A DNA stretch of 64,000 nt from an uncultured Planctomycetales bacterium (GTDB lineage Bacteria > Omnitrophota > Gorgyraeia > Aquiviventales > Aquiviventaceae), in contig CAZKXY010000002.1 of NCBI GenBank assembly GCA_964556925.1, positions 1,953-65,952 of the forward strand, written 5' to 3'. The notes beneath the pieces were generated by a model that saw only the letters and a program-made list of their open reading frames with translations, did not search any database and was not told where the DNA came from. This document shows positions 2,817-61,653 of this stretch, one piece after another; position 1 is the stretch's first letter; the number at the start of each line of letters is the position of its first letter. The position numbers were made by a program, and so were the translations under genes.

Positions 2817-4355
2817 TTGTTGATCACCGATTGGATCTGCAGCGCCCGTGCGCGCCAGCCGTCCGCGCCGGCCATCATCGATGGCGAGCGCTGTTTCACC
2901 TATGAGGCGTGCGCCCGTGAGATCGCGAAGCTGGCCTGGGCGCTGAAGGGCCGCGTGCCGGCCGGGGCACGGGTGGGGCTCCTGATGGGCAATTGCGCCG
3001 AGCTGCTCTTCGCCCAGTATGCGGTGGTCAGCCTCGGCGCCATCGCCGTGCCGATCAACGTCGCCCTCCATGCGCAGAGGGTGGAGGAGATCCTGCGTGA
3101 TGCCGGGGTCAGCGTGGTGCTCGCGCAGGATCGGGCGCTGCGCCGGTATCAGGCGGTGCTGGAAGCGTGCCCGGACATTGCGTTGGTGGTGCAGGACGGG
3201 CGGGAGGCGGCGCTCGGCAAGGAGACGGCGTTGTGGGACACCCTGGAGGAACGCGCCGACTTCGAGCCGCGCAGGGATGTCAGCGAGCAGGCGACGGCGC
3301 TCATCCTGTACACCACCGGCACGACCGGCCGGCAAAAGGGGGTGGAGTTGACCCACGCCAACTTGATGGCGGCAACCCGCAACATCAACGAGGTGATGGG
3401 CCTCACGGAAGGCGAGCGGGAGGTCGTCTCGCTGCCGTTGACGCATTCGTTTGGCCTGGGACGGACGCGGTGCCTCTTGGAGACGCGAAGCACGGTGATC
3501 ATCGAGTCCGGGTTGGACCGGCCGGACAAGGTGCTCTCGAGCTGCCTGCGCCATCAGGCGACCGGGCTGGCGTCGGTGCCGGCGGGGTTTGCCATCTTTC
3601 TGTCGCGGTATGCTGACCTGCTGAACCAATGCGCTGGCTTCTTGCGGTACGTGGAGATCGGCAGCGCCCCCATGCCGCTGGCGCACAAGCGGGCCTTGAT
3701 GGAGGCGCTGCCGCGCACCCGGCTGTTCATGCACTACGGGCTGACTGAAGCCTCCCGGTCGGCGTTCATCGAATTCCATGCCGAGCCGGACCGGCTGGAG
3801 TCGGTAGGCAAGCCAGCGGTCAACGTGTCTATCAAGGTGGCGGATGACCAAGGACGCGCCGTGCCGCCTGGCCAGGTCGGGACGATCTGGATCGCCAGCG
3901 ACACGGTCATGAAGGGGTACTGGAACCGGCCGGAGGACACGGCGCGCGCGCTGGTGGACAGCTGGCTGATGACCGGCGACCTCGGATCGCTGGATGAGCA
4001 GGGCTATCTGACGCTCTGGGGCAGGACCCAGGACCTCATCAATGTGGGCGGGTACAAGGTACTCGCACGCGAGGTCGAAGACGTGCTGACGGGCCACCCG
4101 CGCGTGGAGGAATCCGCGGTGGTGGGGGTGCGGGATCCCTTGGAGATTTCGGGCGAGGTCGTGAAAGCGTTTGTCGTCCGGAAGGACGACGGGGTGTCGG
4201 CGGAGGAGCTGAAGCGCCATTGCCTCAAGCATCTGGAGCCGTGGAAGGTGCCCGCCATCGTGAGCTTCGTGCCCCGGCTACCGAAGACCGGCTCAGGCAA
4301 GGTCCAGAAGCAGCTGCTGGCCGACGCACTCGATGCCATGGCGAGGGCGGCATGA
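2817..4355 (+). CDS. ANL-superfamily acyl-CoA/acyl-ACP ligase (AMP-forming)
   Basis: AMP-binding core LILYTTGTTGRQKGVELTHANL, hinge TGDLG, and C-terminal catalytic Lys motif PKTGSGKVQK. TTG start 2 nt after the ACP stop. Confidence 0.85.
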   Translation: MLITDWICSARARQPSAPAIIDGERCFTYEACAREIAKLAWALKGRVPAGARVGLLMGNCAELLFAQYAVVSLGAIAVPINVALHAQRVEEILRDAGVSVVLAQDRALRRYQAVLEACPDIALVVQDGREAALGKETALWDTLEERADFEPRRDVSEQATALILYTTGTTGRQKGVELTHANLMAATRNINEVMGLTEGEREVVSLPLTHSFGLGRTRCLLETRSTVIIESGLDRPDKVLSSCLRHQATGLASVPAGFAIFLSRYADLLNQCAGFLRYVEIGSAPMPLAHKRALMEALPRTRLFMHYGLTEASRSAFIEFHAEPDRLESVGKPAVNVSIKVADDQGRAVPPGQVGTIWIASDTVMKGYWNRPEDTARALVDSWLMTGDLGSLDEQGYLTLWGRTQDLINVGGYKVLAREVEDVLTGHPRVEESAVVGVRDPLEISGEVVKAFVVRKDDGVSAEELKRHCLKHLEPWKVPAIVSFVPRLPKTGSGKVQKQLLADALDAMARAA

Positions 4356-5560: not shown

Positions 5561-7983
5561 TGGACTCGATCGAGGCCTTGTTGAGGCAGCCGCCGTTTGC
5601 GGCCGGTCCGGAGGAGAAAACGGCGCTGTTGGTGCCCGCGGTCCAGGCGGCGCTGCAACGTCATTACGAGCATTGCGCCGCCTTCAGGACCGTGTGCGAC
5701 ACGCGCAGGTTCGCGCCTGCGCGCGGTGTCTCTGATCTTGCCGCGATCCCGTATCTGCCGGCGCAGTTCTTCAAGCAGATGGCGCTCAGCACGAACGACG
5801 GGGGCGGGCCGACCGTGACGCTGCGGTCCAGTGCGACGACCTCCGGGGTCCCGAGCCAGATCGTCGTGGACGCCGTGACGGCCAGGCGGCACAAGCTCGC
5901 CGTGGTGTCGGTCCTCAAGAGTTACCTGGGGCCGGAGCGCCTGCCGTTCGTGGTGTTTGACGCCGACCCGTCGTTGCAGGGGCTGGCGCCCTCATCGCTT
6001 ACCGCGCGGGGGGCGGCGATCCGAGGGTTCCTCCTGGCCGCCAACGCGGTGGACTATGTGATGGTCGAAGAGGGGGAGGGCGGCCTCCGGCTGGACACAG
6101 AGCGGCTCGGGCGGACCCTGGCCCAATTCGGAGACGGCGAGCGGATGTGTCTCTTTGGCTTCACCGCACCCCTGTACCAGGCCATGCGCCAGGTCCTGGA
6201 AGGGAGCATGCGGTACTGGCTGCCGCAGGCGACGGTGCTGCATATCGGCGGCTGGAAGAAGCTGCAGCAGCAGGCCGTGACGAAATCCGCGTTCGCCGCG
6301 CTCATGGGCGAGACGGTTGGCGTGCCGCCCGACCGGGTGATCGACGTGTACGGATTCACCGAGCAGATCGGCATGATCTACCCGGACTGCGAGCAGGGGG
6401 TCAAGCATGCCCCGGTGTTCGCCGAGGTCATCGTGCGCGATCCGCGCACGCTCCAGCTGGCGGACGACGGCCAGGAGGGGCTGCTGCAGTTCATCTTCCC
6501 CGTCCCGCACAGCTACCCCGGGGTGTCGGTCATCACGGATGACGTGGGCCGGATTGTTGGGAGAGACCGGTGCGGCTGCGGGCGCCGCGGCACCGCCTTT
6601 GTCGTCTTGGGACGCGCGCCGGCGGCCGAGCCGCGCGGGTGCGGAGACCTGGCCCCGGCGCCTGCGGCGCTCGGGCCGCGTGACGCCATGGCGAGGCATG
6701 CCTTGTCGCAGGCCACGACTGAGCGCGAGCTCGCGCTCGACGAGCTGATCCAGGAGCTGCGCCGACACGCCGACGCGGTCCATGCGCTGGAGAGCGACCA
6801 GATCCTCGGCCTGCTCGGCGAGCTGCGCCGCGTCCTGGCTGACCCCGCCCACCCGCTGCACCAGCAGCTGCGGCCGCTCGGGCTGCCGTTCCTCTTGCGC
6901 TGGCTCGCGCCTGAGCGGCTTGCAGCCCAGTTGGATCTCGCGATGCACGGCACGCGCCGCTATCTGGATGCCTTTTTGCCGTCCGGGGACCGGCTGCTCC
7001 ATGCGCAGCCGCGCGGGCTCGTGGTGCACTGGATCGCCGGGAATGTGCCGCTCCTAGGCGTGTTCTCGCTCGTGCAGGCCTGGCTGACGAAAAACGTCAG
7101 CCTGATCAAGGTGCCGGCCGACTGGCCGGGCGTGATCCCCGCGCTGCTGGATACACTCTCGCAGGTGACGTATCTCGCGGCGGACGGCCGGGCGACCTCC
7201 GGGGTGGCGCTCGCGCGCGGCGCGGCGGCACTGTATGTCGATCGCGATGACCGCGCCGCCCAGGAAACACTCTCTCTGGCGGCGGATGCGCGGGTGGCGT
7301 GGGGCGGCCGCGAGGCCATTGAAGCGATCCAGGCGCTGCCGAAGGTGCCCGGCGTGGAAGACATCCTGTTCGGGCCCAAGTACTCGTACATGGTGATCGG
7401 CAGGGAACGTCTGGCGGCAGGGGCCGGGGTGCTCGACCTGGCCACGCGCGCCGCGTTCGACGTCTGCCTCTTCGACCAGCAGGGGTGCAACTCGCCGCAC
7501 ACCATCTTCGTCGAGCGGGGCGGGGCGGTGAGCCCCCGCGAGTTCGCCGCCAGGCTGGCCGAGGCCATGGAGCGGGTGTGCGCCACGATTCCGAAGGCTC
7601 CGCCCAGTCCGCAGGACGTCTCACGCCTGCTCACGCTGCGGGCGACGTATGACGTGCGCGGCCTCGCGCATTACTCCCCGGGGCCGGAGTGGACGGTGCT
7701 GTATGGGGAGGATGACGAGGGGTTGGCCGAGGCGTGCGGCGGCCGCGTGGCGTTCGTCCGGCCGATCGCGGACGCGATGGATGCGGCCGAGCTGGCCAGC
7801 CGGCGCACCCAATCGATCGGCGTGGCGTTGGACCACAGCCGCCGGATCGCGTTTGCCGAGCGGGCCACGTGGGGCGGGGCCGAACGCTGTCCCCCCGTCG
7901 GCGAGATGAGCCATTACGAATCGCCTTGGGACGGGGTCTTCATGATGGACCGGCTCGTGCGGTGGGTGACGACCTATGCGTAA
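5560..7983 (+). CDS. fused LuxE-like acyl-protein synthetase / LuxC-like acyl-CoA (acyl-ACP) reductase
   Basis: The N-terminal ~370 aa (QPPFAAGPEEKTALLVPAVQAALQRHYEHCAAFRTVC, SSATTSGVPSQIVVD, VIDVYGFTEQ, GCGRRGT) looks LuxE-like. The C-terminal ~430 aa (HWIAGNVPLLGVFSLVQAWLTKNVSLIKVP, FDQQGCNSPHTIFVE) looks LuxC-like. It is one uninterrupted frame. The ATG at 5560 shares 1 nt with the upstream TGA. Confidence 0.7.
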   Translation: MDSIEALLRQPPFAAGPEEKTALLVPAVQAALQRHYEHCAAFRTVCDTRRFAPARGVSDLAAIPYLPAQFFKQMALSTNDGGGPTVTLRSSATTSGVPSQIVVDAVTARRHKLAVVSVLKSYLGPERLPFVVFDADPSLQGLAPSSLTARGAAIRGFLLAANAVDYVMVEEGEGGLRLDTERLGRTLAQFGDGERMCLFGFTAPLYQAMRQVLEGSMRYWLPQATVLHIGGWKKLQQQAVTKSAFAALMGETVGVPPDRVIDVYGFTEQIGMIYPDCEQGVKHAPVFAEVIVRDPRTLQLADDGQEGLLQFIFPVPHSYPGVSVITDDVGRIVGRDRCGCGRRGTAFVVLGRAPAAEPRGCGDLAPAPAALGPRDAMARHALSQATTERELALDELIQELRRHADAVHALESDQILGLLGELRRVLADPAHPLHQQLRPLGLPFLLRWLAPERLAAQLDLAMHGTRRYLDAFLPSGDRLLHAQPRGLVVHWIAGNVPLLGVFSLVQAWLTKNVSLIKVPADWPGVIPALLDTLSQVTYLAADGRATSGVALARGAAALYVDRDDRAAQETLSLAADARVAWGGREAIEAIQALPKVPGVEDILFGPKYSYMVIGRERLAAGAGVLDLATRAAFDVCLFDQQGCNSPHTIFVERGGAVSPREFAARLAEAMERVCATIPKAPPSPQDVSRLLTLRATYDVRGLAHYSPGPEWTVLYGEDDEGLAEACGGRVAFVRPIADAMDAAELASRRTQSIGVALDHSRRIAFAERATWGGAERCPPVGEMSHYESPWDGVFMMDRLVRWVTTYA

Positions 7984-8698
7984 TCAGTTCCGGTGCCAGG
8001 CACCTCGCCTCCGGCGAGGAGCCAGGCACCGGCGCGAGATTGTGATCGTCGGGGCGGGCGGATTGGGCAAGGAAATCCTCCAGTACGCGAAGGATTTCTG
8101 CGCGGCGACCAGCGGCTACCGCGTGAAGGGCTTTGTCGATCGCGACCCGCTGCGGCAGGGGACCGATCACTGCGGCTATCCGGTCGTCGGGGCTGACGAC
8201 GGGTGCGCGATCGGGGCGCACGACGTGTATCTCCTCGCGCTCGGGACGCCGGAGGGAAGGAAACAGGCGGTGGAGGCGTTGCAGGCGCGGGGCGCGGCCT
8301 TTTTGACGCTGGTGCACCCGTTGGCCTCTGTGGCGCCGTCGGCCGAGGTGAGAACCGGCTCCGTGATCTGCCCCTTTGCCTACGTGGGTCCCGATGCCGT
8401 CGTGGAGGAATACGTGCTCGTGAACCTCTATGCCAGCTGCGGCCATGACGTTCGGATCGGCAGGTATGCCGTCCTCGGCCCCTACGTCTGCACGAACGGC
8501 CACGCCGCCATCGAGGAGGAGGTGTTCCTGGCCACCCATGCCACGGTCACCGTGGGCAAGCGCGTCGGCCGCGGGTCCAAAGTGTCGGCCGGGGCCGTGG
8601 TCACGCAGGATGTGCCGCCCCATGTGCTCGCCGCAGGCAACCCGGTGAGGTGGCGGGAGTTGGAAGCGATGCAAGCGGTGTGGAAGCAGGACCGATGA
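7976..8698 (+). CDS. NeuD/PglB/LegH-family sugar N-acetyltransferase (hexapeptide repeat)
   Basis: N-terminal Rossmann-like EIVIVGAGGLGKEILQYA followed by left-handed beta-helix hexapeptide repeats (GRYAVLGPYVCTNGHAAIEEEVFLATHATVTVGKRVGRGSKVSAGAVV). Confidence 0.75.
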   Translation: MRNQFRCQAPRLRRGARHRREIVIVGAGGLGKEILQYAKDFCAATSGYRVKGFVDRDPLRQGTDHCGYPVVGADDGCAIGAHDVYLLALGTPEGRKQAVEALQARGAAFLTLVHPLASVAPSAEVRTGSVICPFAYVGPDAVVEEYVLVNLYASCGHDVRIGRYAVLGPYVCTNGHAAIEEEVFLATHATVTVGKRVGRGSKVSAGAVVTQDVPPHVLAAGNPVRWRELEAMQAVWKQDR

Positions 8699-8711: not shown

Positions 8712-9908
8712 ATGAGGACGATTGGCGTTGTGACCGTCGGGCGCTCAGACTACGGCAACTACGTGCCGCTGTTGCGAGCGATACAGCGGGATGCCGCGCT
8801 GCGCCTTCAGCTCATCGTGGGCGGCATGCACCTGTCAGCCGCGTTCGGCTTGACGGTCGAGGCGATCCGGGCCGATGGCTTTGACATCGCCGACCGCGTC
8901 GAGATGCTCCTGTCGTCAGACGCCCCCGAAGGGATCGCCACGTCGATGGGGGTCGGCGTGATGGGGTTCGCGCAGGCCTACGCGCGTCACCGGCCGGACG
9001 TGCTGGTCGTGCTGGGTGATCGCTTCGAGATGTATGCGGCCGCGTCCGCCGCGGTCCCGTTTCGGATGCCGATCGCCCACATCGCCGGCGGCGAGCTGAC
9101 GGAAGGCGCCATCGACAACAGCTTCCGGCACGCGATCACGAAACTCAGCCACCTGCACTTCGTGACGACCGCCACCTACGCCGCGCGCGTCATCCAAATG
9201 GGGGAGGAGCCGTGGCGGGTGACGGTGTCCGGCGCGCTCGGGTTGGATCATCTGCAGGCCTTCGTCGCCTCCGGCCGCCCGGCGCTGGAGGCCCTGGTGG
9301 GCCTCCGCCTCGATCCTCCTCCCCTGGTGGTGACCTACCATCCGGTGACGTTGGAGTACGACCGCGCCGGGGTCCAGATCGACGCGCTGCTGAACGCGCT
9401 GCAGCCGCTCGACCGGCCGCTCATCTTCACCCTCCCGAACGCGGATACCAATGGGCGCGTGATCCGTCAACGCATCGAGGCGTTCGTGGCGCGCCGGCCC
9501 TCCGCCGTCCTGGTCCCGAATCTTGGCACGCAGGCGTATTTCAGCCTGATGGCGCACGCCGCCGCGATGGTGGGCAATTCGTCCAGCGGCCTTGTCGAGG
9601 CGCCATCCTTCGGCCTGCCGGTCGTGGACATCGGCACGCGACAGGCGGGCCGCCTGCGGGCCGCGAACGTCATTCCCTGCGGGTACGGGGCCGACGAGAT
9701 CCGCCAGGCCCTCGCGCGCGCCCTCTCGCCGGAGTTCCGAGCGGGGTTGCAGGGCCTGCGCAATCCCTACGGCGAGGGTCGCGCGTCCGAGCGCATCCTC
9801 GAGGCGCTCACAGGGGTGGCGATCGACGACCGCCTGCTCGTGAAGGCCTTCCACCAGGTCGGCGCTCGGCAGGCGCCCCAGGAGCTCTCGGCATGGACAC
9901 GGATTTAA
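8712..9908 (+). CDS. neuC: hydrolysing NDP-N-acetylhexosamine 2-epimerase (NeuC/LegG family)
   Basis: MRTIGVVTVGRSDYG, GDRFEMYAAASAAVPFRMPIAHIAGGELTEGAIDNSFRHAITKLSHLHF and GNSSSGLVEAPSFGLP match the NeuC-type epimerase pattern. Confidence 0.8.
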   Translation: MRTIGVVTVGRSDYGNYVPLLRAIQRDAALRLQLIVGGMHLSAAFGLTVEAIRADGFDIADRVEMLLSSDAPEGIATSMGVGVMGFAQAYARHRPDVLVVLGDRFEMYAAASAAVPFRMPIAHIAGGELTEGAIDNSFRHAITKLSHLHFVTTATYAARVIQMGEEPWRVTVSGALGLDHLQAFVASGRPALEALVGLRLDPPPLVVTYHPVTLEYDRAGVQIDALLNALQPLDRPLIFTLPNADTNGRVIRQRIEAFVARRPSAVLVPNLGTQAYFSLMAHAAAMVGNSSSGLVEAPSFGLPVVDIGTRQAGRLRAANVIPCGYGADEIRQALARALSPEFRAGLQGLRNPYGEGRASERILEALTGVAIDDRLLVKAFHQVGARQAPQELSAWTRI

Positions 9909-10966
9909 CCAACTTCTGCGTGGCCCCGGGCACCCCGCTGAGGCGGGTGGTGGCCCAGATGGATGGCAACCGGCTGGGGATTGCGCTCGTGATTGATGGC
10001 GAGCGTCGGCTGGTCGGGACGGTCACGGACGGGGATGTCCGCCGCGCCGTGCTGGCGAACATCGGGTTCGACCAGCCGGTCACCGAAGTCCTGCGCCGCA
10101 AAGCCGGCACCAAGTTTGCGATGCCGGTCACGGCGCCGGCCGGGGCCGACCCGAGCACCTATCTCAGCGTGCTCAAGGAGCACCGGCTGCTGTATCTGCC
10201 CCTGATTGATGGGGACGGCCGCGTGGCCGGGCTGGTGACGCTGGCGGAGTTCGTCCCGGCTGAGCCGCTGACGATCCAGGCCGTGGTGATGGCGGGCGGG
10301 AAGGGCCGCCGGCTCCATCCGCTGACGCAGCAGCTGCCCAAGCCGATGCTGCTGGTCGGCGGACAGCCCGTGCTCGAGATCATCATCAAGCAGCTGCGGG
10401 ACGCCGGCATCAGGCAGGTGACGGTGACGACCCATCACCACCCGGACCGGATCGCGGAACATTTCGGGGATGGGAGCGGCCTGGGGGTGGCGCTCTCCTA
10501 TCTAGAGGAAGAGCGCCCGCTGGGCACGGTCGGCGGCCTGGGGCTGCTGGGCGCCCCGAACGACACCACGCTGGTGATCAACGGCGACATCCTGACCCAG
10601 GTCGATTTCCGCGCGATGCTGGACTACCACCGGGAGCACCAGGCGGACCTCACGGTGGCGGTGCGCCAGTACGACCTGAAAGTCCCCTACGGCGTGGTCG
10701 AATGCGCCGGCGAGCGGGTCCGCCGGATCAGCGAAAAACCGGCGTTCCTGGTGTTTGTCAACGCCGGGATGTACCTCCTGGAACCGCTGGTCTACGGCTA
10801 TATCCCGAAGGGGGAGCGGTTGGACATGACCGACCTGATCCAGCGGGTGATTGATGACGGCCGGACGGTGGTCAGCTTCCCGGTGCGGGAGTACTGGCTG
10901 GATATCGGGCAGCGCGACGAATACGAACAGGCCCAAGCGGAAGTGAAACAGTGGGGCGCTCCATGA
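9893..10966 (+). CDS. CBS-pair + sugar-1-phosphate nucleotidyltransferase (PtmE-like)
   Basis: The N-terminal CBS pair (GIALVIDGERRLVGTVTDGDVRRAVL; YLPLIDGDGRVAGLVT) is followed by the NTP-transferase motif VVMAGGKGRRLHPLTQQLPKPML. The ATG at 9893 overlaps neuC by 16 nt. Confidence 0.75.
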   Translation: MDTDLTNFCVAPGTPLRRVVAQMDGNRLGIALVIDGERRLVGTVTDGDVRRAVLANIGFDQPVTEVLRRKAGTKFAMPVTAPAGADPSTYLSVLKEHRLLYLPLIDGDGRVAGLVTLAEFVPAEPLTIQAVVMAGGKGRRLHPLTQQLPKPMLLVGGQPVLEIIIKQLRDAGIRQVTVTTHHHPDRIAEHFGDGSGLGVALSYLEEERPLGTVGGLGLLGAPNDTTLVINGDILTQVDFRAMLDYHREHQADLTVAVRQYDLKVPYGVVECAGERVRRISEKPAFLVFVNAGMYLLEPLVYGYIPKGERLDMTDLIQRVIDDGRTVVSFPVREYWLDIGQRDEYEQAQAEVKQWGAP

Positions 10967-22871: not shown

Positions 22872-24659
22872 ATGAGCGCGCATCACAAGGCGCCGGGATC
22901 GATCGCGCTGCTGATCGTGGCGATGAGCGCCCTGTTCTCACTCGCCATGTTTCGCGGCCTGGAACACAGCGCGGGCTACGGGGGGAGCGTATACCAGGTG
23001 TTGCACCCGGGCAGTTTTCCCGGCGACCGGTTTATGTCGCTCTTCCGTCCAACGATGGTGTCCGCCTATTATCTCCTGGTCAAGCTCGTGGGGGACGTGT
23101 GGTTGGATGACCGGTTTACCATCGTCGTGTTCGCCGCCCTTGCCGTGCTGGCGCTGGCCGGGGTGGACAAAACCGTCCAGCTCTTGGGGGGAAGGCGCAC
23201 CGGCGAGCGCGTCGCCATGCTGTCGTTGATCTTCGTGGCCCATCGGGTCCTCGACAACCAGGCGCAGCTCCTCGGCTCCGAGTTTAACGCGACGCTCTTC
23301 TCCAGCCCCCTGAACATCTGGCTGCTGTATTGGTGTCTCGCGGGTCCGCGGCCGCTGGTGGTGATCCCGTTGATGGTCCTGATCCTCTCCCTCTCTGTGA
23401 AAAACGGCTGGCTCCCTTGCCTCATTACCGGAGTGCTGCTCTGGAAAGAGCGATTGCGGCCTCGGGGTCAAGTGATCGCCGTTGCGGCCACCGGGCTGCT
23501 TGGGGTGCTCGCGTGGCTCGGCTATGCCGCGTTCCTGCGGCGGCCTGATGGCACCGATGTCGCGCTCTTTGATTATCTCCATCGCGAGCTGGAGAACGCT
23601 GAAGCCGATCCTTTTCTGAACCCCTTGGCCGCCAACTTGGTGTTCGTGGGTCTCTGTCTGGCAGGGATGATGGTGAAAGGCCTGCCGGATGCCGTCTCGG
23701 TCAGACTCCGGATCCTGGCCGGCACGGGGCTTGCGGTGTGGTTGGCGGGAGGGCTGTACCTTTCCTCTGCACCCGATCCGATCAAGATCCCCTACCTCGT
23801 CCCCCTTGACGTGACGAGGGCCTTGTGGTGGATCCAGTACGTGATGGGTGCAGCCCTTGGCGTGGCGCTGCTGAAGTGGTTGCAGCGCACCGCCTCCAGC
23901 GCAGGCGTGTGTGTGGCGTGGGGGCTGCTGATGGGGTTGTATCTGGTCCATGAGACGTTTCGAGCGAAGCTTGCCGCGGTGGTGGCCGTGGTCACCCTCG
24001 TGATGGTCGGGATGGCGTGGCGGCGAAACGTGTCAGACACCCTTCGACCTGTCGTCTCGCCGCGGGAAAAGTGCCTGGCACGTTTTGCTGGCCTGCCTGG
24101 CGTGTTGTCGGCCCGCACACGGCTTCGGATCGTGGCGGTCGCGATGTGCCTCGGGACGCTGAGTCTCTATAGCGTTGGCATCGTGCACCGCCGGTGGGAC
24201 GCCCTGGCCTTCTTGGTGCGCCACGGCATCGTGGGGGATAACAGCGGGGCCATCTGGGTCGAGGTCAATCCGTACATCCGGGAGCACACGCCTGCCTCCG
24301 CCACGGTCTTCGCGCTGGCGAGCCGAAACGCGCTCGGGGAGCCATGGGGCCTCCGGTATGAGGGCTCGTTGCGCAACCGGACAGGCCGGTCGATGCCGCT
24401 GGGCTCTGCCTCAGCGTTTTACGTTGACTACCAGGACGTCCAATGGCTCAAAGCCCAGCGCCGACATGTGCAGCTCGTGGTTGAGGCGTGGGAGCTCCAG
24501 GACCTTGCGGGCGTCTCGACGCATCTCGCGGCACTCGGATCCCCGGATTACCTCGTCGTTCCAATCGAGGAGTCTGCGTGGTTGCGCGAGCAACCGGATT
24601 TTGGCTATCAGTTTGAAACCGCGCGCGGAGCCTACGGCATCTTCCGCAGACGCTCATGA
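22872..24659 (+). CDS. polytopic membrane protein, paralog 1 (putative polymerase / GT-C-like)
   Basis: Many hydrophobic segments. Collinear with 26787-28535: MFRGLEHSAGYGGSVYQVLHPGSFPGDRFM vs MFRGLEPTSGYFGNAYQALHPDSFPDDPFM; YLLVKLVGDVWLDDRFTIVVF vs YLLVKLVGERWLDDRVTFVVF. Soluble C-terminal domain. Confidence 0.5.
   Translation: MSAHHKAPGSIALLIVAMSALFSLAMFRGLEHSAGYGGSVYQVLHPGSFPGDRFMSLFRPTMVSAYYLLVKLVGDVWLDDRFTIVVFAALAVLALAGVDKTVQLLGGRRTGERVAMLSLIFVAHRVLDNQAQLLGSEFNATLFSSPLNIWLLYWCLAGPRPLVVIPLMVLILSLSVKNGWLPCLITGVLLWKERLRPRGQVIAVAATGLLGVLAWLGYAAFLRRPDGTDVALFDYLHRELENAEADPFLNPLAANLVFVGLCLAGMMVKGLPDAVSVRLRILAGTGLAVWLAGGLYLSSAPDPIKIPYLVPLDVTRALWWIQYVMGAALGVALLKWLQRTASSAGVCVAWGLLMGLYLVHETFRAKLAAVVAVVTLVMVGMAWRRNVSDTLRPVVSPREKCLARFAGLPGVLSARTRLRIVAVAMCLGTLSLYSVGIVHRRWDALAFLVRHGIVGDNSGAIWVEVNPYIREHTPASATVFALASRNALGEPWGLRYEGSLRNRTGRSMPLGSASAFYVDYQDVQWLKAQRRHVQLVVEAWELQDLAGVSTHLAALGSPDYLVVPIEESAWLREQPDFGYQFETARGAYGIFRRRS
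24026..24086 (-). repeat. 61-bp double-palindrome repeat unit, inverted copy, embedded in-frame in the membrane-protein CDS
   Basis: The reverse complement AAAACGTGCCAGGCACTTTTCCCGCGGCGAGACGACAGGTCGAAGGGTGTCTGACACGTTT matches 45576-45636 at 53 of 61 positions (hand alignment, no gaps). The palindrome centres are 41 bp apart. Confidence 0.8.
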
Positions 24660-26060: not shown

Positions 26061-26790
26061 GCGGTTTCGCCTCAACGGCAAGGTGGCGGCCGTCATTGGG
26101 GGCGCCGGCTACTTGTGCTCGACGCTGGCCCGGGCGATGGAGGACTCCGGCATGACCGTGATCCGCCTGGATGCCCGGACGCCTTCAGGGGGAGCCGCAG
26201 CCAGCCACCTGCGTTGTGATGTGACCTCCAAGCGGTCGCTGGCGCGTTGCCGGGATGCGATCCTGCGCCGGCATGGGCGCGTGGACGTGCTGCTGAATGG
26301 CGCTGGGACCAACGCCCCGACGCCGTTTTTCAGGATTTCCGCCAAGGAGATCGAGCGCATCATCGGCGTGAACCTCATCGGCACGCTCTACGGCTGCCAG
26401 GTGTTCGGCGAGGCGATGGTCGCCCGGCGCCGCGGCAGCATCATCAATTTCACCTCGGTGTCGATGGGGCCCCCGCTGTCGAAGGCCTTCGTGTACTCCA
26501 CCGCCAAGGCCGGGGTGGCGAACCTGACGCAGAATCTGGGGCGGGAGTGGGCGCCGTTTGGCGTCCGGGTGAACGCGCTGCGGCCAGGTTTTTTCCCAAC
26601 CGCGTGGAGCCTGCAGCACTTTATCGACCGGGAGCGCAAGCGCAAGATCCTCACGCACACCCCGATGGGGCGGTTCGGCCGTCCGGAGGAGCTGATCGGC
26701 GCGGTCCTGTGGCTGGCCTCGGATGCGGCGAGCTTCGTGACCGGCGCGATCGTCACCGTGGACGGCGGGTTCACCGCGATGACCATATGA
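26047..26790 (+). CDS. short-chain dehydrogenase/reductase (SDR)
   Basis: GKVAAVIGGAGYLCSTLA, NGAG, and YSTAKAGVANLTQNL (YxxxK). Confidence 0.75.
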   Translation: MTIDERFRLNGKVAAVIGGAGYLCSTLARAMEDSGMTVIRLDARTPSGGAAASHLRCDVTSKRSLARCRDAILRRHGRVDVLLNGAGTNAPTPFFRISAKEIERIIGVNLIGTLYGCQVFGEAMVARRRGSIINFTSVSMGPPLSKAFVYSTAKAGVANLTQNLGREWAPFGVRVNALRPGFFPTAWSLQHFIDRERKRKILTHTPMGRFGRPEELIGAVLWLASDAASFVTGAIVTVDGGFTAMTI

Positions 26791-28535
26791 GCGTCGTCGC
26801 CGTGTTTATGATGGGCATGACCCTCCTCTATCCGCTAGCGATGTTTCGGGGCCTGGAGCCGACCTCCGGCTATTTTGGCAACGCCTACCAGGCCCTCCAT
26901 CCGGACAGCTTCCCCGACGATCCGTTCATGTCGCCCGCGCGCCCGACAATGCACTCGCTCGTGTATCTGCTCGTCAAACTGGTGGGGGAGCGCTGGCTGG
27001 ATGACCGGGTGACCTTCGTCGTGTTCATGGGCCTCACGGCGGCAGCGCTCCTCGGCATCGATCGGACCGCCCGGCTCCTTGGGGCGACGCGCGCCGGGGA
27101 GCGCATCGCGATCCTCTCGCTCATGCTGCTGGGGCACCAGATCCTGAACAACCGCGGCTTTGCCGTCGATTGCATTGATTTCAGTCCGACCGTCTTCGCG
27201 GCCCCGGTCATCATCTGGCTGCTGCACGCGAGCCTCGCCGGCAGCGCGCCGCGCCGCGTGATCCCCCTGATGGCGCTGGTGCCGCTGATCTCGCTCAAAA
27301 GCGCGGCGATGCCGCTGCTCCTCGCCGGCACGCTCCTCTGGAAGGACCGGCTGGGCGCGCGGGGCCGGCGCATCGCCGGCCTGGCGGCCCTGGGGCTCGT
27401 CGCCGCGTCGCTGGCCGTCTACTACGCGTTCGTGCGGCCGCCTGACGGGAGCCACCCGTGGGTCTTTGATCACCTGGTCCGCGAAGATCCGAGCGAAGCC
27501 GACCCGTTCAAGAACCCCCCCATGGGCAGCGCCCTGTTCCTCGCGATGTGCGCGGCCGGGTTGGTGATGCGCGGGCCGAACCCCGCGGCGATGGAGCGGG
27601 TCAAGGTGGTGGCCGGGCTCGGCGGGCTCGTGTGGCTGCTCGGCGGCCTGTACGTCTCGTTGGCCCCTGATGGGCTGAAAATTCCGTATCTGGCCGCCGC
27701 GCATCCCCCCCGGATGCTCTGGTGGACGCAGTACGTGCTGTACCTGGCGCTGGGCGTCGGGCTGCTGAAGGGGGTGCAGCAGGCCCGGTCGTGGGCGGGG
27801 CTCGGGGCCGCCTGGGGCGTGTTGATGGCGCTCTATCTGCTCCACGACACGTTCCACGCCAAGCTGGCGGTCGTGGTGATCGGGATGAGCGTCGTGATGA
27901 CCGGGGTTGCGCTCCGAAGGCTATCCGGCTCTGGCGCCCAGAGCCCCCAGCCCTCAGCCCGGAGCCAAGGGATCGTTGTCGCCATGCGTCCAGCCTGGCG
28001 GCTGCGCGCGGTGTCGGTGGCCATGGCGGTCGGGGTCCTGAGCCTCTACGGCATCGGCACGCTCCATCATCGGCTGGACGCCCTGCGCTCTCTCGTGCGC
28101 CACGGCGTCATGGGCGACAATGAGACGGCGAAGTGGGTGGGGGTGAACGAGTACGTCCGCAGCTCCACCCCCGCATCCGCCACGTTCCTCGCGTTGTCGG
28201 TGGCTCGCGACGGGAGGACCTTGATGCACGATGGGTTCTTGCGGGTTCGCACAGGCCGGTCCATGCTCTTTGGGCACCCGGTGGGGTTGTACTTTGATGC
28301 GCGGAGCCTGCGCTGGTATGACGAGCAGCTGGGGCGCATCAACGCGCTGCTCTCGGCGTGGGATCGGCGGCAGCCCGACGAGGTGTCGCGCGCGCTCTCC
28401 GACTTGGGGGCGCCGGACTACGTCGTGGCGCCCACGGGTCGGTCCGAGTGGCTGCGCGAGCACCCGGAGTTCCCCTACGCCGCAGACACGGCGATCGGAC
28501 ACTTTACCGTCTTGCGAAAAGGCTCGCCGGGATGA
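26787..28535 (+). CDS. polytopic membrane protein, paralog 2 (of 22872-24659)
   Basis: See 22872-24659 for the shared blocks. The ATG at 26787 forms an ATGA overlap with the SDR stop. The ORF-track start at 26247 is rejected because it lies inside the SDR gene. Confidence 0.5.
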   Translation: MSVVAVFMMGMTLLYPLAMFRGLEPTSGYFGNAYQALHPDSFPDDPFMSPARPTMHSLVYLLVKLVGERWLDDRVTFVVFMGLTAAALLGIDRTARLLGATRAGERIAILSLMLLGHQILNNRGFAVDCIDFSPTVFAAPVIIWLLHASLAGSAPRRVIPLMALVPLISLKSAAMPLLLAGTLLWKDRLGARGRRIAGLAALGLVAASLAVYYAFVRPPDGSHPWVFDHLVREDPSEADPFKNPPMGSALFLAMCAAGLVMRGPNPAAMERVKVVAGLGGLVWLLGGLYVSLAPDGLKIPYLAAAHPPRMLWWTQYVLYLALGVGLLKGVQQARSWAGLGAAWGVLMALYLLHDTFHAKLAVVVIGMSVVMTGVALRRLSGSGAQSPQPSARSQGIVVAMRPAWRLRAVSVAMAVGVLSLYGIGTLHHRLDALRSLVRHGVMGDNETAKWVGVNEYVRSSTPASATFLALSVARDGRTLMHDGFLRVRTGRSMLFGHPVGLYFDARSLRWYDEQLGRINALLSAWDRRQPDEVSRALSDLGAPDYVVAPTGRSEWLREHPEFPYAADTAIGHFTVLRKGSPG

Positions 28536-29607: not shown

Positions 29608-30965
29608 GCGGCTCCCAGGCGGCCCTCGAGCCGTGGATCCGGCAGGTCCAGGAGATCCACGCCTGTCGGATCTGCGGCAACCCGATCCTGTCGCCGGTCA
29701 TCGACCTGGGGCGCCAGGCCATCGCCGGCCTGTTCATCCCGCCCCATGTGGACGTCCTGCCCATCAGGGCGGGGCGGGCAGGCCGTGGGGCGGGGCTCAA
29801 CGACGGCCCGTCGGAGCATCACTGGGACGAGCCGATTCCGTTGCAGGTCGTCCGGTGCCAGGCGCAGCCCGGGCGGGCCTCCTGCGGCTTCGTCCAATTG
29901 CAGCACACCGTGCCGCCGTCGATCCTGTACCGGGACTACGGGTACCGCTCCGGCATCAACCCGATGATGCGGCGGCACCTCGAGGGGCTGGTGCGGGAGA
30001 TCGAATCGCGCATCCCGCTGCGCCGGGGCGATCTGGTCGTGGATATCGGGGCCAACGATGGCACGACGTTGCTCGCGTACCAGCAGGCGGGCCTCGTGAA
30101 GGTCGGCTTCGAGCCCTCCAACGTCCGGCCGGACGCCGAGGGCCACGGGATCGTGTACCTGCCGACGGTCTTCAGCCGGCGCGAGTTTGCGCGGCAGCTG
30201 CCGGGCCGGCGCGCGAAGGTCGTGACGAGCATCGCGATGTTCTATGACGTCGAGGCCCCGCGGGAGTTCTGCCGCGACGTCCACGGGATCCTGGCGGACG
30301 ACGGCGCCTGGGTGCTCGAGATGAGCTATCTGGGCGCGATGCTGGAGCATACCGCGTTTGACGCCATCTGCCATGAGCACCTCGGCTACTACAGCCTCCA
30401 CACGCTGCGGCGGCTGGTGGAGGAGGCCGGCTTCGCGTTCCAGGACATCACCTTCAACGAGGCGAACGGCGGCAGCCTCCGCTGCACCCTGGTCAAGCGC
30501 GACGGCGGGGTGCCGGTCCCGTCAGCCAACCAGGAGCGGATCGACGGCGCCTTCGCGGAAGAGCGCCGGCGCGGCTACGACACCCCGGCCCCCTACGCGA
30601 GGTTTCGGGCCAACGTCCAGCGCGTCCGGGAGGAGCTCCTGGGTCTTCTGGCCGAGCGGCGGCGATCGGGCCGGCGCCTCTTCGGCTACGGCGCCTCGAC
30701 GAAGGGCAACGTCCTCCTGCAGTACTGCGGCATCGGGCCGGAGACCCTGATCGCCATCGCGGATCGGAACCCGGCCAAGGTGGGCCGCACCACCTCGGGT
30801 AGCCGGATCCCGATTTGCTCAGAGGACGAGATGCGCCAGGCGCGTCCCGACGACCTCTTGGTCCTCCCCTGGCATTTTCTGGAGGAGTTTCTTGAGCGGG
30901 AACGGCCGCTGCGCGACGCGGGCACCAGGTTCATTGTCCCCCTGCCGCAGGTGCGGATCGTCTGA
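29604..30965 (+). CDS. NDP-hexose C-methyltransferase (TylCIII-like; Zn-ribbon + class-I MTase + C-terminal domain), no. 1
   Basis: N-terminal CRICGNPILSPVIDLGRQAIAGLF ... CGFVQLQHT, then VVDIGANDGTTL (SAM motif I), HEHLGYYSL and a C-terminal FIVPLP tail. Collinear with 44205-45446. Carries a ~45-aa insertion in the Zn-ribbon region. Confidence 0.7.
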   Translation: MSGSQAALEPWIRQVQEIHACRICGNPILSPVIDLGRQAIAGLFIPPHVDVLPIRAGRAGRGAGLNDGPSEHHWDEPIPLQVVRCQAQPGRASCGFVQLQHTVPPSILYRDYGYRSGINPMMRRHLEGLVREIESRIPLRRGDLVVDIGANDGTTLLAYQQAGLVKVGFEPSNVRPDAEGHGIVYLPTVFSRREFARQLPGRRAKVVTSIAMFYDVEAPREFCRDVHGILADDGAWVLEMSYLGAMLEHTAFDAICHEHLGYYSLHTLRRLVEEAGFAFQDITFNEANGGSLRCTLVKRDGGVPVPSANQERIDGAFAEERRRGYDTPAPYARFRANVQRVREELLGLLAERRRSGRRLFGYGASTKGNVLLQYCGIGPETLIAIADRNPAKVGRTTSGSRIPICSEDEMRQARPDDLLVLPWHFLEEFLERERPLRDAGTRFIVPLPQVRIV

Positions 30966-31018
30966 CATGAAGCCGAGACTTGCGGAGCGAAGCGAACGCA
31001 AGTCTCTGGCTGAAGGTC

Positions 31019-31118
31019 ACCCCACCACCTGTCTGCCTCCGCCGAAGGCGGAGGCTCGAGCGGCGGACAACGGTGACCGGTGCCGCCGGTGGCGGGACCG
31101 GAGGACAGGTGGTGGGGT
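31019..31118. repeat. 100-bp palindromic (MITE/REP-like) element with 15-bp perfect terminal inverted repeats
   Basis: ACCCCACCACCTGTC (31019-31033) and GACAGGTGGTGGGGT (31104-31118) are exact reverse complements. Internal hairpin GCCTCCGCC-GAA-GGCGGAGGC at 31035-31055. Lies in the 222-bp gap upstream of gmd. Confidence 0.8.
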
Positions 31119-31160
31119 TCAATTCGCACAGCAACGTACGTCGCCCTCCGGGCTCCGTAA

Positions 31161-34519: not shown

Positions 34520-34534
34520 CGCGCATGCTCGCCA

Positions 34535-34649
34535 GCTGCGGGTGGCCAGGCCTCCGCGCGCCGCTCAGCGAATGTTGCTGCGCCCGGCTCATGACGAAAG
34601 CTCGCAACATTCGAATTCGCGGCGCGCGGAGCGCCTGGCCACCCGCAGC
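34535..34649. repeat. 115-nt extended hairpin nested in cassette A
   Basis: GCTGCGGGTGGCCAGG (34535-34550) pairs perfectly with CCTGGCCACCCGCAGC (34634-34649). CTCCGCGCGCCGC pairs with GCGGCGCGCGGAG. The inner stem CGAATGTTGC (34569-34578) pairs with GCAACATTCG (34604-34613), with a 25-nt loop. Absent from cassette B. Confidence 0.75.
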
Positions 34650-34670
34650 CAGCGCGCGGCCGGTCGCTCA

Positions 34671-34730
34671 AAAGGTGTCTGACACCTTTCCCGACGCCAG
34701 ACGAGCGGTCGACAGGTGTCTGACACCTGT
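34671..34730. promoter_or_regulatory. two perfect 19-nt palindromes 41 bp apart (operator- or REP-like)
   Basis: AAAGGTGTC-T-GACACCTTT (34671-34689) and ACAGGTGTC-T-GACACCTGT (34712-34730). Located ~90 nt upstream of the KdsB-like start. Confidence 0.6.
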
Positions 34731-34816
34731 TGCGATGCGCAGCGGCCTGCCTGCCGGGCAGGCAGGCAGGACCCGGCGGGCTAGCGTTAGGCCGGCAGGC
34801 TGAGGCGGGTGGGGGG

Positions 34817-45446: not shown

Positions 45447-45720
45447 CGCGCATGCCCGCCAGCTGCGGGGTGGGCTCGCCTGCGGGGCGCGGCGTCGCTC
45501 CGGCCGCCCAGCGTGCGGCCGGTCGCTCAAAAGGTGTCAGATACTGCTCTGTCGAAAAGCCGCGGTTCCAGAGCAAAAAGTGTCAGACACGTTTCCCGCT
45601 GCGAGACGACAGGTCAAAAGGTGTCTGACACTTTTTGCGATGCGCAGCGGCCTGCCGGCCAGGCAGGACCCGGCGGGCTAGCGTTAGACCGGCGGGCTGA
45701 GGTGGGGAGAGGATGACGCG
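45441..45720 (+). repeat. composite intergenic cassette B flanked by a perfect 10-bp direct repeat GGATGACGCG
   Basis: GGATGACGCG at 45441-45450 contains the upstream TGA. The same 10-mer at 45711-45720 contains the downstream ATG. The two copies are 270 bp apart. The interior is homologous to cassette A and carries three GTGTC-N-GACAC half-palindromic sites centred at 45539, 45585 and 45626. Confidence 0.8.
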
Positions 45721-47692: not shown

Positions 47693-48799
47693 GTGAAGCT
47701 TCGGCTCTTAGACTGGCTGGCCTGCCCGGATTGCGGCGGGCCGGTCGAGGCGGAGGCGTTCAGGCGGGATGACGCCAGCGGCGAGATCGAGGAGGGGCTG
47801 CTGCGCAGCGGCTGCGGGCGGGTCTACCCGGTGGTCCAGGCGATCCCGCGCATGCTCGATGAAGGCGTGGAGCTGTTCCCCGAATTTGCCAGGCGGTACG
47901 CGGATCGGCTGCCGCCGGAGCGCCGCCAACCGGCCGGCGGCAGGTTTTCCGTGTCCGAGCGGTTGATCCGCCGCACCATGGAGAGCTTCGGCTACCAGTG
48001 GACGCTCTTCCCGGAGATGGTCATCGATTTCCGGGAGAATTTCCTCCGGTACATGGAGCCGTTGACGGAGTCCTTTTTCCGCGGGAAAGTCGGCATCGAC
48101 CTCGGCTGCGGCTTCGGCCGGCATGTCTACAACGCGGCCCAGTGCGGGGCGGAGATGGTCGGCGTGGACTTAAGCCGCGCCATCGATGCCGCGCGGCGGA
48201 ACACCCGGCGACTGGCCAACGTCCATCTCGTCCAGGCCAATCTGTACCGCCTGCCGTTCCGGCGGCAGTGCTTCGATTTCGCCTACAGCCTCGGGGTCCT
48301 GCATCACCTCCCTGATCCCGAGCGGGGGTTTGCGTGCCTGTGGCCGCTGGTCAAGCCGGGCGGCACCGTGCTCATCTGGGTCTACAGCAAGAGCCGGCGG
48401 GTGACCAATTGGCTGCTGGAGACCGTCCGCGGCATCACGACCCGCCTCTCCGCACGGGCGCAGACGGCCATCGCCTATGCGTGCGCCGCGGCGGACTGGT
48501 CGCTGTTCATCGCGCCGTACCGGATCGGATCGCGCCTGCCCGTGATCGGCCGCCTCGTGGACCAAATCACCTTTCCTCGGCTCAAAGTCTACAGCGCGTA
48601 CCCCTTCCAAGTCGTCTGCGCGGACTGGCTCGACCGCCTGACGGCGCCCATCCGGTTTTACTACGACGGGCAGGATTTGGACGGCTGGTTCCGGCGGGCC
48701 GGACTGGATCAGATCCGGGTCCACGCGACCGGCTTGTTCGGTTGGACGGCCTGCGGGCAGACCGCGCCGACTGAGCACCCGTCCCCTATCCCGTCATGA
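47693..48799 (+). CDS. Trm112-like Zn-ribbon + class-I SAM methyltransferase
   Basis: LLDWLACPDCGG...YPVVQAIPRML (Trm112p-like) then GIDLGCGFGRHV (motif I). GTG start 7 nt after GAGGAG. Confidence 0.7.
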   Translation: MKLRLLDWLACPDCGGPVEAEAFRRDDASGEIEEGLLRSGCGRVYPVVQAIPRMLDEGVELFPEFARRYADRLPPERRQPAGGRFSVSERLIRRTMESFGYQWTLFPEMVIDFRENFLRYMEPLTESFFRGKVGIDLGCGFGRHVYNAAQCGAEMVGVDLSRAIDAARRNTRRLANVHLVQANLYRLPFRRQCFDFAYSLGVLHHLPDPERGFACLWPLVKPGGTVLIWVYSKSRRVTNWLLETVRGITTRLSARAQTAIAYACAAADWSLFIAPYRIGSRLPVIGRLVDQITFPRLKVYSAYPFQVVCADWLDRLTAPIRFYYDGQDLDGWFRRAGLDQIRVHATGLFGWTACGQTAPTEHPSPIPS

Positions 48800-61559: not shown

Positions 61560-61653
61560 GTTCGAGCGGCGAGGACGCCGTGGGGTGCGCGGCGGCCTGT
61601 CTGCCCGGCAGGCAGGCAGGACCCGCTGCCAGGCGACTGTTCGAGCGAGGAGA
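61560..61653 (+). repeat. short hairpin element flanked by direct repeat GTTCGAGCG(GC)GAGGA
   Basis: GTTCGAGCGGCGAGGA (61560-61575) and GTTCGAGCGAGGAGA (61639-61653). They flank CCTGTCTGCC-C-GGCAGGCAGG(CAGG) at 61596-61620. That is the same hairpin family as 34746-34770 and 45651-45667. Confidence 0.65.

Follow-up and report, generated by a model that had tools for sequence, protein, structure and literature searches.

The DNA considered here is a 64,000-nucleotide stretch of contig CAZKXY010000002.1 (hereafter, the window), and our attention was focused on a short double-palindromic repeat unit that occurs in it three times, twice between genes and once inside the coding sequence of a membrane protein. 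The window has 69% G+C, carries all its callable genes on the + strand, and represents one very large sugar/glycan biosynthesis cluster. The enzymes encoded include B12/radical-SAM proteins, NDP-sugar dehydratases, aminotransferases, C- and O-methyltransferases, cytidylyltransferases, glycosyltransferases and asparagine-synthase-like proteins, while no transposase and no regulator turned up among the window open reading frames (ORFs) scanned. The three copies and the features that hold them are the following:

22872-24659, + strand: ORF of the host gene of the coding copy, a 595-aa polytopic membrane protein of an uncharacterised family
24023-24089, - strand: coding copy of the unit (repeat finder; covariance model R1, 79.6 bits, E 1e-19)
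34520-34815, + strand: intergenic cassette 1 (aligned with cassette 2 and with the cassettes of loci L124, L134 and L138)
34669-34733, + strand: solo unit in intergenic cassette 1 (R1, 73.3 bits)
45447-45712, + strand: intergenic cassette 2 (from the alignment of cassette copies)
45572-45638, + strand: unit in cassette 2, the best copy of the window (R1, 97 bits, E 1e-24)

An inverted-repeat search of the window paired 24023-24089 with 45572-45638 (67 nt, 87% complementary) and 24023-24087 with 34669-34733 (65 nt, 77% complementary). The initial annotation had matched the reverse complement of 24026-24086 to the cassette 2 copy at 53 of 61 positions; the count holds, with the partner at 45575-45635, one base off the interval given then (45576-45636), and a direct count against the copy at 34670 gave 47 identities in 61. 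The palindrome GTGYCWGRCAC is centred at 24035/24076, 34680/34721 and 45585/45626, and recounting these coordinates confirmed the proposed regular spacing, with centres 41 bp apart in all three pairs and 46 bp apart in the pair 45539/45585. Allowing one mismatch at most, GTGTCNGACAC occurs 8 times in the window against 2.0 expected, a number attained in none of 100 shuffles. In unit orientation, the coding copy runs from hairpin arm GTGCCAGGCAC through core TTTTCCCGCGGCGAGACGACAGGTCG to hairpin arm GTGTCTGACAC.

Thirty-eight distinct copies of the unit, when aligned, required no gaps, and have inverted-repeat arms of roughly 20-23 nt around a 20-nt core, with a fold stem of about 18-20 bp. The first hairpin is centred on A and the second on T in 36 of the 38 copies, which shows the arms to be inverted repeats of each other. 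Pairing between the arms, at alignment columns 10-32 / 53-75, extends to 87.9% of cells, two-hairpin and one-hairpin models alike pair 88-90% of cells, and the arm sequence alternates between GTGTC/GACAC and GTGCC/GGCAC among the aligned copies. The minimum-free-energy fold of the cassette 2 unit is one long hairpin (-36.6 kcal/mol, z -6.4), and the coding copy, folded in the mRNA sense, reaches -33.7 kcal/mol (z -2.9). Rfam 15 gave no match in the window at gathering thresholds, the sub-threshold matches being generic miRNA-hairpin models only, and comparison of the unit with known RNA and repeat families gave no match either.

The initial annotation expected further copies beyond the window, and these exist. 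The core pattern CACNTTTCCCGNNGCNAGACGNNNGGTC, with 21 specified bases, was scanned in metagenome and viral contigs, and retrieved about 46 copies in 40 metagenome contigs, none overlapping the window, and none in viral contigs. The densest contigs hold at least 7 copies per 117 kb and at least 6 per 76 kb, and the density is about one copy per 10-15 kb. The whole unit is also present in two groundwater Ca. Omnitrophota metagenome-assembled genomes (L025 and L104), the only such species-representative genomes among the matches listed. JAHFGU010000001, a contig with a syntenic ortholog cluster, belongs to the accession series of one of these two genomes. Overall, the repeat family is multi-copy and dispersed in related high-GC genomes, in a lineage that is probably Omnitrophota. 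Intergenic positions account for 21 of the 23 classifiable copies, and both orientations are seen relative to the neighbouring genes (11 tandem-same, 4 tandem-opposite, 4 convergent and 2 divergent). The copy at 24026 of the window and those of L112, L127, L142, L143 and L148 are solo units, 63-67 nt in length. A literature search on repeats in Omnitrophota returned nothing relevant, and a full-text search with the palindrome sequences matched unrelated primers only.

As regards the coding copy, translation corroborates that the copy at 24026 lies in frame and stop-free inside ORF 22872-24659 (...WRRNVSDTLRPVVSPREKCLARF..., also written RRNVSDTLRPVVSPREKCLARF), the + strand reading of 24023-24089 being (R)RNVSDTLRPVVSPREKCLARF. 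The amino acids encoded by the unit, 384-405, belong to an Arg/Lys-rich, positively charged loop between the last two hydrophobic segments. By the positive-inside rule, the loop is probably cytoplasmic. The unit-bearing gene is identical in three independent assemblies (JGI 3300022563, ENA ERZ27245685 and Logan), which excludes an assembly artefact. Translations and the family alignment agree with the earlier remark that the paralog at 26787-28535 has an unrelated loop at the corresponding position. Moreover, the comparison with orthologs that had been advised was informative: the closest one, P0002 (78% identity), lacks 21 residues exactly at the unit, and in a 22-member alignment the window protein (P0001) has NVSDTLRPVVSPREKCLARFAGL opposite this 21-residue gap. 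The DNA of the P0002 contig (locus L004) is 80.5% identical, syntenic, and aligned through both gene borders, which makes P0002 an ortholog. Across the 22 homologs aligned, the loop at the unit site is hypervariable in sequence and variable in length, and the net difference between P0001 and P0002 is 63 nt, with exact borders not fixable in such a variable loop. From the comparison of these sequences, the copy at 24023-24089 emerges as a gain specific to this lineage, of about 63 bp (21 codons). A landing without a stop codon is not improbable per se, since the consensus unit is open in 4 of its 6 frames.

Neither the host membrane protein nor its paralog has a relative in Pfam, NCBIfam or PDB, and the family counts only 23 homologs in a collection of 5.8 billion proteins. 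The genes at 22872-24659 and 26787-28535 are paralogs; each product is a polytopic membrane protein of about 590 aa that has a soluble domain at its C terminus, and in the four neighbourhoods of host-gene homologues that were fetched, the gene stands within a sugar-modification cluster of the window type. The two proteins may represent an undescribed family of glycan polymerases or transferases.

Two more translated copies were found outside the window. At L127 (2855-2918), an in-frame unit encodes the peptide QKVSDTFPDARRQVEKCLTLV in the hypervariable linker of a GT4-polysaccharide deacetylase. The possibility that the unit caused this gene fusion was rejected, as the fusion is widespread and predates the unit. 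At L152 (6726-6788; JAHFGU010000001, a syntenic cluster), a core-deleted unit forms the C-terminal extension of a GFO/IDH/MocA oxidoreductase, which has 358 aa versus 339 aa in the 80%-identical window ortholog. A simple ORF caller had put 7 copies within ORFs, and the translations were afterwards read individually: L118 and L145 were rejected, both lying upstream of real gene starts, and three further copies, besides the two verified, look like gene-end or antisense artefacts. Coding copies amount to about 3 of 45. Landing in coding DNA is recurrent, and always at structurally permissive sites (a transmembrane loop, an interdomain linker and a C-terminal tail).

In addition to solo units, the family comprises a composite of 121 nt, laid out as a terminal inverted repeat, arm A, the unit, arm B and a second terminal inverted repeat. 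Twenty-three distinct composites of 120-122 nt were collected, with ends GCTCTGTCGAA.../...TTCGACAGAGC and 15-nt terminal inverted repeats, which in full read (T)GCTCTGTCGAAaAGC ... GCTgTTCGACAGAGC(A). Direct 9-bp target duplications are present in about 13 of the 23, 12 of them at 7 or more matches in 9 and five perfect, while in L140 the duplication measures 10 bp and is shifted by one base; two of the perfect duplications stand at non-palindromic targets (ACCGATAGT and GCGGCATTC). Fourteen of the 23 composites lie within hairpins of the family. By its terminal repeats and target duplications, the 121-nt composite is a MITE (miniature inverted-repeat transposable element), and it prefers the family's own hairpins as target. 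Its fold is a rod (-86.5 kcal/mol, z -10.7). Y1 transposases are not known to make target duplications, and from the terminal repeats together with the 9-bp duplications we infer a second, DDE-type transposase. A search for an autonomous parent insertion sequence (IS), with the terminal repeats 0.6-3 kb apart around a transposase, found none in 405 kb. The 20-nt core is reversed relative to arms A/B at L135 (6477-6597), L147 (9732-9852), L104 (3605-3726) and L136 (~3815-3900), where it looks as if the segment between two identical hairpins was inverted. Another composite at L104 (575-755) measures 181 nt; it ends in the terminal inverted repeats of the 121-nt form, but holds four AAAAGTGCCWGGCACTTTT hairpins and lacks the conserved core, which shows the hairpin to be a reusable module.

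The composite also accounts for the structure of the second intergenic cassette, which stands between a C-methyltransferase gene and a gene for an RmlD-like reductase; cassette 1 stands between a methyltransferase gene and a cytidylyltransferase/2-hydroxyacid dehydrogenase gene. The paralogy of the two window intergenic regions spans about 230 nt, beyond the 61 bp noted earlier. These cassettes are hairpin mosaics of about 230 nt, not counting nested inserts, with a solo unit in every one, and follow the order GC-rich hairpin, unit, CCTGCCTGCC/GGCAGGCAGG hairpin. Copies outside the window were found at L124 (~9789-9992), L134 (~6240-6520) and L138 (~2400-2680), where the neighbouring genes are, respectively, VitK2_biosynth (menaquinone biosynthesis)/radical-SAM, ExbD/TonB, and FGGY sugar kinase/DAO FAD-dependent oxidoreductase. 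Cassettes between such functionally unrelated genes rule out a gene-specific operator. Paralogous cassettes differ by the presence or absence of nested inserts, and in cassette 2 two pieces precede the unit:

45529-45544, + strand: remnant, the left part of the first hairpin of the resident unit (AAAAGGTGTCAGATAC)
45545-45574, + strand: left terminal inverted repeat (T)GCTCTGTCGAAAAGC, starting at 45546, and arm A (CGCGGTTCCAGAGC) of the 121-nt composite

In cassette 2, the first hairpin of the unit is 46 bases longer than in the other four cassettes, the addition being made up of the left terminal repeat, arm A and a new hairpin, and its junction is identical to that of L151 (GGTGTCTGACAC|T|GCTCTG). 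This insert and the L151-type junction show that a 121-nt composite was inserted into the resident hairpin. The extra half unit that had been proposed at 45528-45550 is thus the remnant of the resident hairpin at 45529-45544, split by the left end of the composite. The right arm and right terminal repeat of the composite are missing from cassette 2, and this right half may have been lost, most simply, by recombination between the two tandem units. A promoter and terminator scan of both cassettes returned no sites; a sigma-54 promoter by the second hairpin (TGGCAC...TTGC) was rejected by eye, the spacing being 2 nt too short.

We then turned to the enzyme that might move the unit, namely a REP-associated tyrosine (Y1/HUH) transposase (RAYT), the enzyme that acts on repetitive extragenic palindromes (REPs). 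A double-palindrome scan of a genome collection returned more than 107 loci from many phyla, among the matches listed, where roughly 2-4 would be expected by chance (our own estimate, with uniform base frequencies). The 105 listed loci outside the Omnitrophota-like group contain the 11-mer 482 times in 746 kb, 65% of which are GGTGYCWGRCACC. Viral scans with the double palindrome and two control palindromes returned 0, 0 and 1 matches, too few to calibrate the enrichment across phyla. The same GGTGYCWGRCACC is found in multi-copy repeats (L005-L111) of many lineages, among them Bordetella, Achromobacter, Treponema, Aminicenantes, Vicinamibacterales, Gaiellales, Thermoleophilia, Planctomycetota and Bacillota. 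A Thermoleophilia locus (L097, 6400-7140) carries a RAYT-like gene at the Pfam Y1_Tnp cut-off, with four palindrome doublets before it and another at its end, and a second Y1 transposase gene, of Rhodothermales (L044, 7020-7999), follows directly after a palindrome doublet. Both genes have GTGYCWGRCAC palindromes on both sides, within about 70 nt, and a profile search groups them with proteins named 'REP element-mobilizing transposase RayT' in their source. Moreover, all three homologs fetched by protein similarity alone (L156, L157 and L159) are flanked by GTGYCWGRCAC, which brings the RAYT loci of other lineages with this flanking core to five of the five examined and identifies the hairpin of the unit as the REP type of a RAYT clade. 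In Bordetella petrii, a locus where two copies stand 1.5 kb apart in inverted orientation was considered too and set aside, since its ORFs, from translations only, are of transport/decarboxylase type and not RAYT.

Altogether, we consider it likely that the unit is a non-autonomous, hairpin-forming mobile repeat resembling REP doublets that form hairpins (REPINs) and bacterial interspersed mosaic elements (BIMEs), with two inverted AAA(N)GTGYCWGRCAC(N)TTT arms around a conserved 20-nt core. The first suggestion of the initial annotation was likewise an element of the REP/BIME type or a miniature mobile element, and it is supported by the number of copies, their occurrence in both orientations and among unrelated neighbours, their nesting, the target duplications of the composite and the RAYT-flanking core. 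Neither of the two outcomes that the annotation had named as refuting it was observed, since further copies exist and the orthologs do not conserve the loop. On this reading, the unit is a small selfish repeat, a real but familiar kind of bacterial 'junk' DNA. In such a scheme, a RAYT of the GTGYCWGRCAC clade, encoded once elsewhere in the source genome, would mobilise the solo unit via single-stranded hairpin intermediates, and a separate DDE-type transposase would move the 121-nt composite. The coding copy may persist because its length is a multiple of three, it is stop-free, and its loop is permissive and probably cytoplasmic, and the intergenic copies would be co-transcribed passengers.

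Several results weigh against this reading. Neither the window nor about 490 kb of Omnitrophota-like DNA yielded a RAYT, an IS200-type TnpA or any other transposase, in searches with RAYT and IS200 TnpA sequences, a regular expression for HUH/Y motifs, the L097 RAYT and a hidden Markov model of 120 RAYTs. The initial annotation had advised looking for a RAYT: none was seen in the DNA of this lineage, and the same hairpin core flanks RAYTs elsewhere. RAYT genes occur about once per genome, and 490 kb is a small part of several genomes, so that this absence is weak evidence. A protein search with the RAYT profile gave no match named Omnitrophota, most matches being without an organism name. Direct repeats, of the kind that MITEs generate, do not flank the solo copies inspected (the copy at 24026, L112, L127, L142, L148 and the cassette copies). 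An empty-site allele at more than 95% identity was not found, and the coding insertion consequently rests on an ortholog of 78% identity and on a loop that is hypervariable. The arms show modest covariation, with the variable pair 16/28 paired in just 22 of 38 copies; the aligned copies are kin, so that the shuffle control overstates the support from covariation, and template-switch correction of quasi-palindromes could keep the arms complementary without selection. The 20-nt core was preset by the search pattern, which renders its conservation partly circular. Finally, the flanking 9-mers are perfectly inverted in 8 of the 23 composites, a pattern that simple cut-and-paste leaves unaccounted for and that may stem from template-switch symmetrisation of a long quasi-palindrome. 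Composites with inverted flanks include L114, L115, L121, L135, L146, L149 and L104, the flank of L135 itself not being palindromic.

A more elaborate version would have three mobile layers stacked on one another: a REP hairpin of a RAYT clade, a translatable REPIN, and a hairpin-parasitic MITE that carries the REPIN as cargo. It would make GGTGYCWGRCACC common to the repeats of about a dozen phylum-level lineages or more and link it to a single RAYT clade, and it draws on the flank symmetrisation and core inversion of the MITE and on the unusually conserved core of the REPIN. We put it forward tentatively, as a construction that is rather unlikely to hold as a whole. If the conserved core were a recognition or regulatory module, and not a passive spacer, the system would be a variant of the REP/RAYT system.

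The unit could instead be a host-conserved structured RNA (a cis-regulatory or processing element, or a small RNA), with the coding copy accidental. The very stable hairpin (unit, z -6.4; composite, z -10.7) and the conserved 20-nt core would suit such an RNA, as would the persistence of the fold of the coding copy in the mRNA sense and a bias of 11:4, not significant, for the orientation of transcription in tandem contexts. A stable fold is, however, to be expected of any inverted repeat, and the conservation of the core is partly imposed by the search pattern. Furthermore, there is no Rfam family beyond the sub-threshold miRNA-hairpin models, both orientations occur, and the composite has terminal repeats, target duplications and self-nesting, which altogether leave the structured RNA improbable.

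Even less probable is the alternative offered by the initial annotation, a set of phased dimer-binding operator sites. We took these as bound by a dimeric regulator of the sugar/glycan cluster, with the intragenic copy as a roadblock or looping partner. The perfect 11-19-bp palindromes with centres 41 bp apart, about four helical turns, the highly conserved hairpin sequence, and the location of two copies, within a long co-directional cluster, at 85-95 nt upstream of a start codon gave this idea its appeal. Nevertheless, it went unsupported: the unit and its cassette stand between functionally unrelated genes (VitK2_biosynth/radical-SAM, ExbD/TonB, FGGY/DAO), in convergent, divergent and tandem contexts and in both orientations, copies are nested in each other and reach a density of about one per 10-15 kb, the composite has target duplications, no regulator gene appeared among the window ORFs scanned, and RAYT genes of other lineages are flanked by the same palindrome. 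Least credible of all is that the copies in opposite orientation (24026, - strand; 34670 and 45575, + strand; 65-67 bp, 77-87% identical, 10.6 and 21.5 kb apart) serve as recombination sites for inversion or phase variation of a 10-21-kb segment: reversed cores in some composites do show that recombination across hairpins happens, but the JGI and ENA assemblies, which are longer than the gene, agree on the arrangement (the 2-kb Logan contig spans the gene only), flipping would break the membrane-protein gene in a window with all its called genes on the + strand, and no recombinase gene was found among the window ORFs scanned.

Returning to the mobile hairpin repeat, the family is new while its kind is known: a REPIN/BIME-like unit, a MITE built around that unit, and in-frame insertions of the type known from Rickettsia. 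REPINs are REP doublets that form hairpins and are mobilised by RAYTs (Bertels & Rainey 2011, PMC3116915). The present unit resembles them in its two inverted REP-type palindromes which, with a spacer, fold into one long hairpin, in its numerous and mostly extragenic copies, in the compensatory changes of its stem, in its clusters and mosaics, and in the occurrence of its hairpin core beside the RAYTs of five loci from other lineages. It differs in that no RAYT was seen in the DNA of the lineage itself, its spacer is not variable but a 20-nt core with strong conservation, each arm is a near-perfect palindrome, and three copies are translated. BIMEs of E. coli are made of REP units (also called PU) and linker motifs. 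The likeness lies in the mixture of hairpins with short motifs (the ~230-nt cassette and the 181-nt four-hairpin composite of L104) and in the placement between co-directional genes of operons, whereas in sequence the unit bears no resemblance to those of E. coli.

Rickettsia palindromic elements (RPEs; Ogata et al. 2000, 2002) are in-frame palindromic inserts that leave unrelated genes intact; they are Rickettsia-specific, measure about 100-150 bp, and in R. conorii have many copies within ORFs (reviewed in PMC10969869). In-frame insertion into intact ORFs is shared with them in three cases (24023-24089 of the window, L127 and L152), as is the gain of a peptide segment at a site where the structure tolerates it, yet the unit is 63-67 bp long, of unrelated sequence and from a high-GC lineage, an analogue and not a member. 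The composite compares with bacterial MITEs (Correia/NEMIS, ERIC, RUP and BOX; PMC10969869) as a non-coding element with many copies, terminal repeats, duplications and a rod fold; it differs in its duplication of 9 bp, as against TA in Correia (PMC10969869), in the lack of a parent IS with the same ends among the sequences searched, and in a core that is a REPIN-like doublet. In its location inside REP-type hairpins in 14 of 23 cases, the composite also recalls insertion sequences that target REPs, with the difference that it is non-autonomous and has a 9-bp duplication. IS1397/ISKpn1 and IS621 are known to target REP hairpins. The same holds for ISPpu9, of the IS110 family (PMC12288879).

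The repeats represent a previously undescribed family of small palindromic mobile elements in a barely studied, uncultured lineage, and indicate that palindromic repeats can supply in-frame peptide segments outside Rickettsia, as a loop, a linker or a tail. With GTGYCWGRCAC tied to RAYTs in several distant lineages, the prediction is that a RAYT of this clade is present in these genomes. Annotation may benefit as well, since repeats of this kind lengthen or join ORF calls, disrupt assemblies and resemble regulatory palindromes. No principle is changed, as REP, REPIN and MITE biology already covers the finding.

Three further features of the window are related to the unit or its cassettes by sequence or position:

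7988-8035, strand not assigned: weak degenerate relative of the unit (R1, 22.9 bits, E 0.001; inverted-repeat pair)
34532-34652, strand not assigned: a different long palindrome of about 100-120 nt, nested in cassette 1
61581-61625, + strand: partial third copy, unit-free, of the right-hand GC-rich hairpin of the cassettes (GGCCTGTCTGCCCGGCAGGCAGGCAGGACCCG; direct-repeat search)

The first consists of two GGTGCCAGGCACC-type palindromes, 27 nt apart, flanking a small hairpin, and it lies at the junction of a LuxE/LuxC fusion gene and a gene for a PglD-like acetyltransferase; the ATG at 7976, if it were the true start, would turn this doublet into an N-terminal extension (MRNQFRCQAPRLRRGARHRRE). 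The palindrome at 34532-34652 contains the blocks GGCCAGGCCTCCGCGCGCCGC...CGAATGTTGC...GCAACATTCG...GCGGCGCGCGGAGCGCCTGGCC, unrelated to the unit, is missing from the four other cassette copies, and matched only sub-threshold miRNA-precursor hairpin models in Rfam; it is probably another small mobile element. The ENA assembly (L002, 20776-21788), which is 99.98% identical to the window up to 33647, diverges from it about 1 kb upstream of cassette 1, with one 572-aa gene beyond that point versus genes of 266 aa and 252 aa in the window. This divergence is a strain-level rearrangement.

Other repeats of the window are of a different nature. A 900-aa PMT_2/TPR/PKD-domain gene (48796-51498) contains both a 272-nt direct repeat at 50209-50762, in two copies that are 99% identical and 282 bp apart from start to start, and three 45-nt tandem units at 49537-49671, and these look like recent internal domain duplications. 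A 38-nt inverted repeat at 30996-31141 (…GGTCACCCCACCACCTGTC / GACAGGTGGTGGGGT…), unrelated to the unit, sits in the 196-nt gap between a gene ending at 30965 and another starting at ~31173.

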